Shown one piece after another: positions 30,226 to 46,290 of a stretch of DNA of 64,000 nucleotides (position 1 is its first letter; every line of letters starts with the position of its first letter). Origin of the DNA: Escherichia coli (lineage in GTDB: Bacteria; Pseudomonadota; Gammaproteobacteria; Enterobacterales; Enterobacteriaceae); the NCBI RefSeq assembly GCF_050320075.1, contig NZ_CP190018.1, one strand, 5' to 3'. The notes beneath the pieces are model-generated. The model saw only the letters and a list, made by a program, of their open reading frames with translations. It did no database searches and was not told where the DNA came from. The translations under genes and the position numbers were made by a program.

Positions 30226-30241
30226 TACTGTATAAACAGCC
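30226..30241. promoter_or_regulatory. Candidate non-canonical LexA (SOS) box of dinG
   Basis: tactgtataaacagcc (CTGT ... ACAG with shortened spacer) about 15 bp upstream of dinG ATG. Confidence 0.55.
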
Positions 30242-30381
30242 AATATTGTGGCATTTTTCGGTTTTCAGGGGTAATGGTTTTTCTGTTTCTGGAAAGCGGC
30301 TCGCAATAACGTTTTCCGGATGTGAAGTTTTCTCGCGGCAGAAGAAACATCATTGTGCAGCAAAAGACATTGTACATCAGC

Positions 30382-30663
30382 TTATTCCGCTGGCGGCCAT
30401 TGCAGAGCGGTATGTAAAACACGCAGTACCGAGAGCGTATCGCCCTCCACTTGATAGACAAGCACATAATGCGGCCTGACAACGGCTTCATGTGTACCAG
30501 CGACTCGTCCGGCCCGGTACATCTCCGGGCGTTCACAGGCCTGTTCCGCAATGGCTTCAAATTGATTATCAAGGGCTATTGCCGCTAGCGGATTATCTTT
30601 ACTGATGTATTCCATGATTTGCTCCCTGTCAGACAGGGACATTGGCTTCCATTCCAGACGCAT
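30382..30663 (-). CDS. ParE/RelE-superfamily toxin (type II TA)
   Basis: 93 aa; ParE-like pattern (...YISKDNPLAA..., ...VLVYQVEGDTLSVLRVLH...); start shares one nucleotide with upstream ORF stop (TAATG). Confidence 0.7.
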   Translation of the reverse strand: MRLEWKPMSLSDREQIMEYISKDNPLAAIALDNQFEAIAEQACERPEMYRAGRVAGTHEAVVRPHYVLVYQVEGDTLSVLRVLHTALQWPPAE

Positions 30664-31103
30664 TAATCCCCCTTCAGCAAGGCTTTTTTACGGGCAGCAA
30701 ATAGACTTTTGGCCTCTTCATGAGAGAGTGCCGGGCGTGGATCGTCAATGGCGGCCTGCACCTGCTCTCGAAACCAGGCATCATACGCGGCAGCTTCATG
30801 AGCTCGTTTTAATGCCTCAGCCCTGTCTGGTCGGGTCGTTTTCTTCTGACCGTCCGGGTCGTAATTAGAGGCGTCGACTTCAAACCGGGCAATACCAACA
30901 TCTTTCAGGTAGTTGACAACCGTTTCCAGCCGTTTGAACAGGCGGATTTGCCGACTGCGTTGTGCTGCAAGAGGCCGTTCAGTGTGGCCGTATTTCACGG
31001 TCAACGACCAGCCTCCCTGGGTGCCAATAACGTGTGCTGCATCCACTACGCCAGATTCAACCAGTTTATGTAAGGTTGAGTGATCGATCGTTTCTGGTGC
31101 CAT
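30663..31103 (-). CDS. Putative antitoxin, C-terminal PaaA2/ParD-like region with ~90-aa N-terminal extension
   Basis: 146 aa; C-terminal AAYDAWFREQVQAAIDDPRPALSHEEAKSLFAARKKAL resembles PaaA2-type antitoxins as I recall them; translationally coupled to the toxin. Confidence 0.55.
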   Translation of the reverse strand: MAPETIDHSTLHKLVESGVVDAAHVIGTQGGWSLTVKYGHTERPLAAQRSRQIRLFKRLETVVNYLKDVGIARFEVDASNYDPDGQKKTTRPDRAEALKRAHEAAAYDAWFREQVQAAIDDPRPALSHEEAKSLFAARKKALLKGD

Positions 31104-31227
31104 AATGCGCTAACCTCTTTGTATACAGCATGCAATTTATAATTAAAGATAGAGCAATTAATAATAAATTGCAGCACCTTGATCGTAAATTGCCCAGGAT
31201 AAAATTGCGGTAGAAAGAGACTTGTTG

Positions 31228-31250
31228 CGAAGATGCCGGGCATCGCCCGG
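31228..31250 (-). terminator. rhlE terminator hairpin
   Basis: gccgggcatcgcccggc inverted repeat just downstream of rhlE stop, T-run on - strand. Confidence 0.55.
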
Positions 31251-31259
31251 CATAAAAGA

Positions 31260-32624
31260 TTACTGCGCAGCGGCAGGTTTACGCGGACGGCGGCGACGTT
31301 GTTGTTCGCCTGCCGGTTTGGCATCGCCGAGACGACGAGACGGTTTTTCTGCGGGCTTCGCGTTACCAGACTTCGCACCACTTTCCGCACGGCGTGGTTG
31401 CTGTTGACCGCGACCACCACCTTGCCCACGACCGCCGCCGCCACGTTGCTGGCGACCGTTCTGGATCGGTTCGGCTTTGATTGACGGGTCCGGCTCATAA
31501 CCCGGAATCGCAATGCGCGGGATCTCTTTTTTCAGCAGTTTTTCGATATCACGCAGCAGTTTGTGTTCATCAACACACACCAGCGACAACGCTTCACCGG
31601 TAGCAGCCGCACGACCGGTACGCCCGATACGGTGGACATAATCTTCCGGTACGTTTGGCAGTTCATAGTTGACCACGTGCGGCAGCTCTTCAATATCCAG
31701 GCCGCGCGCAGCGATGTCAGTTGCCACCAGTACACGAATATCGCCCGATTTAAAATCAGCCAGCGCACGGGTACGCGCACCTTGCGATTTATTGCCGTGG
31801 ATCGCCGCACTACGGATGCCATCTTTATTGAGCTGTTCAGCCAGATGGTTAGCGCCATGTTTGGTACGGGTAAACACCAGCACCTGCTGCCAGTTCCCTT
31901 TCCCAATCATGTGCGACAACAATTCGCGTTTGCGTTTCTTATCAACAAAGTGAACATGCTGGGTCACCTGATCAGACGCGGTATTGCGGCGTGCCACTTC
32001 GATTTCCAGCGGGTTGTGCAACAGTTTTTCCGCCAGAGCTTTAATATCGTCAGAGAAGGTCGCGGAGAACAACAGGTTCTGGCGCTTCGCAGGTAGTTTT
32101 GTTAACACGCGACGGATATCGTGGATAAAGCCCATGTCGAGCATGCGGTCAGCTTCATCGAGGACGAGGATTTCAACCTGATCCAGCTTCACCGCATTCT
32201 GATGTTCCAGGTCCAGCAGACGTCCCGGCGTTGCAACCAGCACATCAACGCCGCCGCGCAACTTCATCATCTGCGGGTTAATGCTGACACCGCCAAACAC
32301 CACCAGCGAACGAATGTTCAGGTATTTGCTGTAATCACGGACGTTTTCGCCAATCTGCGCCGCCAGTTCACGGGTCGGGGTAAGAATGAGCGCACGTACC
32401 GGACGACGCCCTTTGGCGTGCGGCTGGCGAGTGATCAGGTGTTGCAACAGCGGCAGCGTAAAGCCCGCTGTTTTGCCGGTGCCAGTCTGGGCGCTAGCCA
32501 TCAGGTCGCGGCCTTCCAGCACCGCAGGGATCGCCTGCTGCTGAATAGGGGTGGGTTCACGGTAACCCTGCTCGGCAACGGCGCGCAGGATATCAGGGCT
32601 TAAACCCAAAGAATCGAAAGACAT
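31260..32624 (-). CDS. rhlE: DEAD-box RNA helicase RhlE
   Basis: 454 aa; Q-motif, [12 protein letters not shown] (VLDEAD), basic RGG-rich C-tail. Confidence 0.95.
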
Positions 32625-45138: not shown

Positions 45139-46128
45139 TTAGCCGCCAATGTACGATAAGTTTTGCGTAATACCGGTGTTGTTTTGATGCAGGAAATGGG
45201 TCTGTTTCTTCTCCCGCAGCGCCGCTGAAATACGCGCTTCCAGCGCCTGTTGCTGGGTATCGTCTTCCAGCAGATCGCGCAGGTTAACGCCGCCTTCACC
45301 AAACAGGCAGAGATGGAGTTTACCAATGGAGGAAACGCGCAGGCGGTTGCAAGTGGCGCAGAAGTCTTTTTCATACGGCATGATAAGGCCAATCTCTCCG
45401 GCGTAATCCGGATGACAAAAGACTTGCGCGGGACCGTCGCTGCGTTGACGTAATTGGTGGATCCAGCCGCGACGCAGTAGCTCGTCACGCAGAACCTGAC
45501 CAGAGATGTGATGCTTACGGAAGAGCTCGCTGCCCTCACCCGTTTCCATCAATTCGATGAAACGCAGCTGGATAGGGCGATGCTGGATCCAGTTCAGAAA
45601 GGTGTCGAGCTGATGATGATTAACATCACGCATCAGCACGGTATTGACTTTGACCTTTTCAAAACCGGCCTCAAATGCGGCATCGATCCCTGCCATGACC
45701 TGGTTGAATTTATCCTGCCCGGTAATGGCATGAAACTGGTGAGCGTCAAGGCTATCAACGCTGACGTTGATGCCAGTAAGTCCAGCATCGCGCCAGTTCG
45801 CCACATCGCGTTCCAGACGGTAACCATTGGTGGTGACCGCAATCTGGCGGATAGCGTCGTTTTCCCGCACAGCGGCGATGATATCGGTAAAGTCGCGGCG
45901 TAAAGACGGCTCACCACCTGTCAGACGGACTTTTTCGGTGCCAAGACTGGCGAAGGCGCGCGTAACCCGGCGAATTTCATCGACGGTAAGAAAGCCTTTA
46001 TTGGTGACGCCGCTCGGTTTGTAGCCATCCGGCAGGCAGTAGGTGCAACGAAAGTTACACACATCGGTAATCGACAGGCGCAAGTAGTAAAACTTACGCG
46101 CAAATGCATCAGTCAGTTGTGAAGCCAT
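45139..46128 (-). CDS. moaA: GTP 3',8-cyclase MoaA (radical SAM)
   Basis: 329 aa from ATG 46128; CNFRCTYC radical-SAM cluster motif. Confidence 0.95.
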
Positions 46129-46134
46129 GTACAC

Positions 46135-46290
46135 CTTTCCAGATACGGGAGGCGAAGTCATTTCTTCCTTCGCCCTGGTGGCAATCTTTACGAGCATTGT
46201 CACGGCCAAAGCACCGTATCAGTTGACCCAGGTGCAGAGGCTAGAGTGTTTAGTGGTTAAGCCGATACTAGCGTGTAAATGAGATTTTTA
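46135..46290 (-). ncRNA. moaA leader, expected molybdenum-cofactor (Moco) riboswitch
   Basis: Placed by established knowledge that the E. coli moaABCDE leader carries the Moco RNA motif; conserved motif not verified by alignment here. Confidence 0.45.

Follow-up and report, generated by a model that had tools for sequence, protein, structure and literature searches.

What does an Escherichia coli chromosome carry between rhlE and dinG when ybiA is missing from that gap, and how would the replacement be controlled? The question is raised by a 64-kb stretch of E. coli DNA (hereafter the window, meaning the whole stretch analysed), in which the gap holds two minus-strand open reading frames (ORFs) encoding a 146-aa and a 93-aa protein. 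We consider the pair to be, quite probably, a self-contained type II toxin–antitoxin (TA) cassette of the PaaA2/ParE2 lineage, which is horizontally mobile and would be repressed by the N-terminal domain of its own antitoxin, with its position next to dinG most likely being incidental.

Boundaries, gene layout and family of the pair

In K-12 MG1655, the gene order is rhlE, ybiA (b0798) in opposite orientation, and dinG, in agreement with the initial annotation of the window. A blastn alignment of the window with the K-12 locus placed the boundaries of the replacement at 30311-31231, where a 921-bp cassette is swapped for 706 bp of K-12 sequence (NC_000913 832265-832970) comprising repetitive extragenic palindromic (REP) sequences and ybiA. 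On the rhlE side, homology with K-12 extends past the rhlE stop codon and its hairpin and stops at window position 31232; this hairpin, ATGCCGGGCGATGCCCGGCAT (31233-31253, minus strand), was found just 3' of the stop codon by an inverted-repeat search and is the last K-12-shared sequence on that side in the junction alignment. On the dinG side, homology restarts at 30310, 99 bp upstream of the dinG start. The absence of a YbiA-like ORF was borne out by a tblastn search with K-12 YbiA, which revealed no YbiA-like sequence across the whole window (best E = 0.58). The K-12 allele occupies the same gap and has the same dinG-side breakpoint, but the gene is unrelated, runs in the other direction and has no sequence similarity to the cassette; YbiA is a stand-alone NADAR N-glycosidase, and enzymes of this family reverse the ADP-ribosylation of guanine in DNA (PMC11125620).

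Both ORFs are intact and start with ATG. The upstream ORF (30663-31103, minus strand) encodes the 146-aa antitoxin, listed in RefSeq as 'antitoxin PaaA2 family protein' (WP_001522657.1), and the downstream ORF (30382-30663, minus strand) encodes the 93-aa toxin of the ParE family, listed as 'RelE/ParE family toxin' (WP_001522659.1). The translational coupling proposed initially is reflected by a one-base overlap, base 30663 being common to the antitoxin stop and the toxin start (TAATG, within ...GATTAATGCG...). A GAGG Shine-Dalgarno sequence is located 10 nt 5' of the antitoxin ATG. No third gene was found in the cassette, either in the six-frame ORF list, which includes short overlapping out-of-frame ORFs, or in the RefSeq annotation.

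The 93-aa protein, initially described as ParE/RelE-like, matched the Pfam ParE_toxin model (PF05016) with E = 1.3e-13, residues 3-86 aligning with model positions 1-86 of 89. Its significant sequence matches in the PDB were to ParE proteins only, with ParE2 as the best (5cw7, E = 1.7e-6). The AlphaFold2 model, built from 13 homologues, had a predicted local distance difference test (pLDDT) score of 94 and the element order strand-helix-helix-strand-strand-strand; in a Foldseek search against the PDB, ParE2 was again the best match, with a template modelling (TM) score of 0.89-0.90. By analogy with ParE toxins, the protein would probably poison a topoisomerase.

For the 146-aa protein, a match to the Pfam PaaA2 model 'Stability determinant' (PF21217) was obtained at residues 104-130 (E = 4.2e-10), and the best PDB match was PaaA2 (3zbe/5czf, E = 2e-4, residues 83-139). 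The initial annotation had likened this C-terminus to both PaaA2 and ParD; the likeness to PaaA2 stands, whereas that to ParD does not, as no ParD Pfam match and no N-terminal ribbon-helix-helix (RHH) domain were found in the protein. In the AlphaFold2 model (pLDDT 78 overall), residues ~94-144 form two helices, which include the PaaA2 motif. The best PDB matches of antitoxin and toxin are the two partners of one solved complex (5cw7/5czf), and the helical C-terminal segment may be expected to wrap and neutralise the toxin as seen in the PaaA2-ParE2 crystal structure.

At each of the 14 homologous loci inspected outside E. coli, a ParE_toxin gene directly follows the antitoxin gene, with otherwise unrelated neighbours. 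The loci lie on plasmids of Salmonella, Yersinia, Serratia, Rhizobium, Martelella and Xanthomonas, on a Xenorhabdus chromosome, on a contig of betaproteobacterial origin and on six further contigs from environmental samples; the pair thus spans alpha-, beta- and gammaproteobacteria, in plasmids as well as chromosomes. Stop and start of the homologous pairs usually overlap or are adjacent, and the toxin is intact at 13 of the 14 loci, the Xenorhabdus locus holding a 49-aa remnant. The antitoxin-toxin pair is thus kept as a unit across unrelated genomic contexts, as expected of a type II TA system. This retention, together with the significant family matches of both ORFs, implies that the gene pair is more than a chance arrangement. 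About 900 database relatives have the fused antitoxin architecture, the best 120 being 63-99% identical to the window protein, and the antitoxin model gave 214 matches in the AlphaFold database at E ≤ 0.001.

The closest known system is PaaR2-PaaA2-ParE2 of the E. coli O157:H7 prophage CP-933P (5cw7, 5cze, 5czf, 3zbe), which provided the best PDB match for both proteins. In both systems, the antitoxin gene precedes the toxin gene and the antitoxins have in common the motif Y-x-x-W-(F/L)-R-x-x-V...DPRP. The toxins share the ParE fold and a similar C-terminus (HTALQWPP here, HARRQFP in ParE2), but in structural alignments only about 26-27% of the residues are identical to those of ParE2. PaaA2 is a protein of 63-71 aa with no distinctive DNA-binding domain, and because of this lack repression in the O157:H7 system depends on an additional protein, PaaR2 (PMC8630535); in the same article, the target of ParE2 is described as not established, though ParE2 induces the SOS response. 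The locus in the window differs in that the motif makes up the last third of a longer, 146-aa antitoxin, preceded by a folded N-terminal domain (N-domain), and in that there are two genes instead of three; neither a paaR2-like regulator gene in the cassette nor a prophage context was found. Canonical ParD-ParE systems (RK2/RP4 parDE, Caulobacter ParDE1 3kxe, Vibrio cholerae ParDE2 7r5a, Mycobacterium tuberculosis ParDE1 8c24) are likewise two-gene operons with a toxin of ParE fold (TM 0.79-0.84 to the toxin model). As in ParD, an N-terminal folded domain is combined with a C-terminal toxin-wrapping segment in the antitoxin; unlike in ParD, the N-domain is not of the RHH type.

The antitoxin N-domain and the upstream site

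The first 85 residues of the antitoxin, for which the initial annotation had offered no interpretation, make up a separate folded domain. This N-domain (residues ~5-78) was predicted, at pLDDT values of 70-87, to run from a helix through three strands and two helices to a final strand. It corresponds to Pfam PF28031 'ParC-like', for which the homologues are flagged. Antitoxin residues 6-83 cover the 80-position NCBIfam model NF041544 'ParC family partition-associated protein' end to end, with a score of 33 bits versus a cut-off of 95 (E = 3.5e-8); the match to NF050103 (47 bits) was likewise under its cut-off. The domain is highly conserved: in an alignment of 43 relatives with the fused architecture, 29 columns are invariant, the basic stretch AAQRSRQxRLF being among them. 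The domain is joined to PaaA2 in >100 clusters. Homology of the N-domain with RK2/RP4 ParC was considered and rejected (BLASTP E = 13, hhalign probability 0.2%). Since RP4 ParC matches neither NF041544 nor the N-domain, the 'ParC' label brings no functional information from RK2.

The leader of the antitoxin gene (31104-31231) has a G+C content of 34%, compared with 51.5% for the window. The initial annotation had called it AT-rich, and had pointed to a tgtataca palindrome, which is present at 31120-31127 (TGTATACA). As an operator, this palindrome was rejected, being changed in a second E. coli variant (CCGTATACA) and absent from the plasmid homologues. What is conserved instead is a dyad of 20 bp, TGCAATTTATTATTAATTGC (GCAAT-N9-ATTGC; 31154-31173, minus strand), regarded here as the putative operator. 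It holds the -10 hexamer TATTAT of a predicted sigma-70 promoter (TTTACG-17 nt-TATTAT; 31161-31189, minus strand), found by a consensus scan with 9 of 12 matches, which is near the chance rate. Positions 31158-31173 additionally form a 16-nt inverted repeat with a second arm, TTAATTATAAATTGCA (31131-31146, minus strand), the arms being 94% complementary with 11 nt between them. This second arm gives a third ATTGCA half-site, between the -10 hexamer and the Shine-Dalgarno sequence, that is invariant among the E. coli variants; an ATTGCA-type half-site was also found at about -20 to -35 in other homologous loci. Leader substitutions among the E. coli variants lie outside the repeat arms, and the promoter-like elements, the Shine-Dalgarno sequence and the dyad are intact in E. 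coli.

Upstream of the antitoxin gene, the dyad occurs once per locus in Salmonella, Yersinia, Xenorhabdus, Rhizobium and a betaproteobacterium; in most of the homologous loci, its distance from the antitoxin gene is about 60-70 bp. A degenerate dyad pattern was built from six loci, on which a test of the same pattern would be circular; scanning the 64-kb window with it revealed one match, with 0 expected. Six of the eight loci outside the pattern definition carry the dyad at -59 to -78 with ≤3 substitutions (for one of the six, the position was counted from an extra upstream gene), where shuffles of the same upstream regions gave an expectation of 0.003 loci. The non-coding DNA around the dyad is not conserved across loci. 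From these comparisons, we conclude that the conserved GCAAT-N9-ATTGC dyad is likely the operator.

Most likely, it would be the N-domain that binds this site as a dimer, and since the dyad overlaps the -10 hexamer, binding would lead to auto-repression of the operon; the further ATTGCA half-site downstream of the dyad may also be used. An alternative function of the ParC-like domain, in oligomerisation, plasmid maintenance or sensing, with the upstream site being a mere promoter or host-factor site, has to be taken seriously although we judge it to be unlikely. It would accord with the fold, as no likeness to the RHH, helix-turn-helix, AbrB or Phd folds was found and the domain resembles no known antitoxin DNA-binding fold, with the occurrence of the domain as a stand-alone protein on small plasmids, beside a RelBE pair already equipped with an antitoxin of the RelB/DinJ family, and with the location of the -10 hexamer inside the dyad. 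However, the dyad half-sites outside the -10 hexamer and the third half-site are kept from alpha- to gammaproteobacteria and move with the gene, the cassette encodes no other regulator, and canonical type II antitoxins have an N-terminal DNA-binding domain. Going beyond auto-repression by the N-domain at this locus, we tentatively propose, while leaning slightly towards doubt, that PF28031 is an unrecognised antitoxin DNA-binding fold reading GCAAT-N9-ATTGC, and that the family represents the complete (ancestral) two-domain form of PaaA2.

Stand-alone ParC-like relatives of the N-domain number ~170; they are mostly 84-89 aa long, derive mainly from Aeromonas and from a few Enterobacteriaceae, and are often found on contigs of <10 kb. 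On a 7.5-kb plasmid of Aeromonas hydrophila (L024 2498-3346), the gene for such a protein (86 aa; 54% identity with the antitoxin N-domain) immediately precedes a RelB/RelE pair and the replication gene. This plasmid was considered as a three-component analogue (ParC-like protein, antitoxin, toxin) and rejected, the downstream pair being an unrelated RelB/RelE system complete with its RelB/DinJ-family antitoxin.

Several homologous loci showed features of their own. On the Xenorhabdus nematophila chromosome (L015 4001-4590), an intact antitoxin of 145 aa is followed by the ParE ORF of only 49 aa, which may be an orphan-antitoxin stage of decay. On the Martelella plasmid (L021 703-1215), a thermonuclease-family gene is located just upstream of the fused antitoxin-ParE pair, beside repC; its product annotation is that of the gene adjoining parC in the RP4 par region. 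A metagenome contig (L030 902-1656) carries a small DUF7706 gene between the 20-bp site and the antitoxin gene, and a TrfA replication gene downstream, an arrangement that suggests a three-gene operon variant. Compared with the window proteins, the Rhizobium homologues are 59% identical for the antitoxin and 35% for the toxin, and those of Xanthomonas 43% and 28%; across loci (L007, L025 and others), the toxin diverged faster than the antitoxin. Antitoxins generally diverge faster than their toxins, so that the trend is reversed here.

Alleles of the gap and the dinG neighbourhood

Of 5,426 complete E. coli genomes, 324 (about 6%) had the cassette at ≥80% coverage, always at the rhlE-dinG site, and 3,429 (about 63%) had the K-12 ybiA segment; as the initial annotation had presumed, the pair belongs neither to K-12 nor to most E. 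coli. Alleles were typed in 60 of the 5,426 genomes, spaced evenly along the ranking of a flank-only query, revealing six TA cassettes, 32 copies of ybiA, 13 truncated ybiA pseudogenes and nine larger inserts. Three of the larger inserts were examined and contained espX2, encoding a type III secretion effector, in E. coli O157:H7 strain 2571 (L008 6883-8895), the insertion sequence (IS) IS1397 beside truncated ybiA, and IS621 beside ybiA (L009 7037-8385; L010 7461-8441 for the two IS alleles). Both IS elements sit in the rhlE-proximal intergenic stretch, where K-12 has REP sequences. Reading of the junctions showed that the dinG-side breakpoint ...TTGCGAGCC is common to the TA cassette, ybiA, truncated ybiA and espX2 alleles. 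The rhlE-dinG gap is a multi-allele hotspot, occupied by ybiA, truncated ybiA, the TA cassette, espX2 or IS elements.

In the truncated ybiA allele (L003 2705-2902, strain AVS0935), only the C-terminal part of ybiA is retained. Since this allele is common, accounting for the 13 pseudogenes in the 60-genome sample, many E. coli lack a functional YbiA NADAR enzyme.

There are at least two cassette variants, about 2% apart, which differ by 13 synonymous and three non-synonymous codons in the coding sequence; neither reading frame is disrupted in any of the six E. coli copies examined (the window and five other strains). Strain EC190329 (L011) has a cassette identical to that of the window, with dinG being 2.4% and the rhlE 3' end 5% different. 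An identical cassette in diverged flanks implies transfer between lineages by homologous recombination. At the wider scale, the same pair and upstream site occur in alpha-, beta- and gammaproteobacteria, in plasmids as well as chromosomes, which points to a mobile cassette. The cassette accordingly represents horizontally mobile DNA, which E. coli lineages swap via homologous recombination in the flanks.

Two observations concern the flanking genes. In strain EC190329 (L011 1-2099), dinG is annotated as frameshifted, reflecting either an assembly error or genuine loss. The rhlE 3' end (window 31260-31560), which encodes an Arg/Gly-rich tail, shows 94-96% identity between strains, even where the cassette is 100% identical (L011), and 95% identity to K-12 over 265 bp, with the remaining rhlE being 97-99% identical; the pattern points either to recombination that broke off at the rhlE stop codon or to hypervariability of the tail itself.

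The TA pair lies directly upstream of dinG and is co-directional with it, as described initially. The dinG 5' region is part of a block shared with K-12 (99.7% identity over 311 bp). Within this K-12-shared sequence and outside the cassette, TATTGGCTGTTTATACAGTA is located at 30226-30245 (minus strand), which we take, on the basis of the published dinG operator, to be the dinG LexA box. In the TA leader (31104-31259), no LexA box (CTGT-N8-ACAG, ≤1 mismatch) was found, and LexA control of the TA promoter was rejected.

Functional wiring of the cassette to dinG, either by readthrough from the TA promoter, resulting in LexA-independent dinG expression, or by toxin-inflicted DNA damage inducing this SOS gene, appears improbable to us. 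The pair is situated 170 bp upstream of dinG, in the same direction, and no intrinsic terminator was predicted between the toxin stop and dinG (folding z-score -1.5), so that readthrough into dinG is possible on sequence grounds. Furthermore, overexpression of the O157 ParE2 induces the SOS response, according to PMC8630535, citing Hallez 2010. Against such wiring, the gap elsewhere holds unrelated cargo (ybiA in the reverse orientation, espX2 or IS elements), dinG retains its own 5' region, homologous cassettes are found in unrelated contexts, and the TA leader is devoid of the CTGT-N8-ACAG box. Because of the varied cargo at the gap and the varied contexts of the homologous cassettes, the position beside dinG is most likely incidental.

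Between the toxin gene and the dinG-side junction lies a non-coding 3' flank (30311-30381, minus strand), for which an intrinsic terminator was not predicted. It is fast-evolving, with 79-82% identity between the E. coli variants. A predicted hairpin, CAAUGAUGUUU...AAACGUUAUUG (window ~30300-30355, minus strand), straddles the cassette/dinG junction; its arms are the same in all E. coli variants, and 13-15 substitutions fall in the loop and the remainder of the 71-bp flank. The hairpin is without a U-tract, and the folding z-score of the region is only the above -1.5. A 21-nt complementarity between 30320-30340 and the dinG ribosome-binding site was also considered and taken as chance, since its exact core is 8 bp, the arm varies among the E. 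coli variants, and about two such pairs are expected by a rough estimate.

Toxin activity, database standing and meaning

A RelE/StbE-type mRNA interferase, cutting ribosome-bound mRNA, was weighed as the identity of the toxin in place of a ParE-type topoisomerase poison. The toxin scored 38.5 bits with the NCBIfam model TIGR02385 RelE_StbE, above the cut-off of 27.9, which is why some RefSeq records read 'mRNA interferase toxin, RelE/StbE family'. The Pfam and PDB sequence matches, however, are to ParE, and the 22 top chains in the Foldseek search were all of the ParE family (TM 0.75-0.90), whereas chains of the mRNA interferase type (YoeB, YafQ, RelE) ranked below (TM 0.54-0.69). Besides ParE2, the ParE-family matches included ParE of Pseudomonas aeruginosa, Mesorhizobium, M. 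tuberculosis, Caulobacter and V. cholerae as well as PrpT and PfiT. The catalytic set of E. coli RelE is K52, K54, R61, R81 and Y87; in the alignment with K-12 RelE, R61, R81 and Y87 are without equivalents in the toxin family, and the toxin stops short of the RelE C-terminal helix. As judged from sequence and modelled structure, the 93-aa protein is a ParE-type toxin, this being favoured over RelE/StbE, and mRNA interferase activity is very improbable.

Decay of a former plasmid addiction module, now without function and retained in E. coli only by hitch-hiking, would suit an accessory cassette present in only 6% of genomes and the truncated toxin of the X. nematophila homologue, but it is scarcely probable in view of the six of six intact E. 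coli copies, the mostly synonymous substitutions between variants, and the intact Shine-Dalgarno sequence, promoter-like elements and dyad.

A comparison with PADLOC-DB 2.0 revealed no anti-phage defence match for either protein at E ≤ 0.01, and PHROGs yielded unnamed families and a weak RelE-like match only. There was no Rfam match in the cassette region; the sole match in the window above the Rfam gathering threshold was a molybdenum cofactor riboswitch at 46116-46260 (minus strand; RF01055, 103 bits, full length).

Both genes are already named in RefSeq, and both antitoxin domains are already in Pfam. No experimental study of the subfamily or the locus was found in the searchable literature, which was queried for the locus, for fusions of ParC-like and PaaA2 domains and for relatives of the PrpA and CopA types. 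The locus is an ordinary, annotated two-gene TA cassette that is unusual in the extra N-terminal antitoxin domain and the conserved upstream DNA site. Its practical significance is modest, in that a plasmid-type addiction module is shown to be one allele of the rhlE-dinG gap, spreading by recombination in the flanks. The locus also gives convenient access, in E. coli, to a large and uncharacterised family in which the PaaA2 segment is combined with a conserved domain and a well-defined candidate operator, so that the regulation of PaaA2-type systems without PaaR2 becomes directly testable. If PF28031 does bind the dyad and the family is the complete form of PaaA2, this would answer the question, posed in PMC8630535, of whether PaaA2 came from a DNA-binding antitoxin and then depended on PaaR2, and it would offer a first clue to what the stand-alone ParC-like proteins of small plasmids do.

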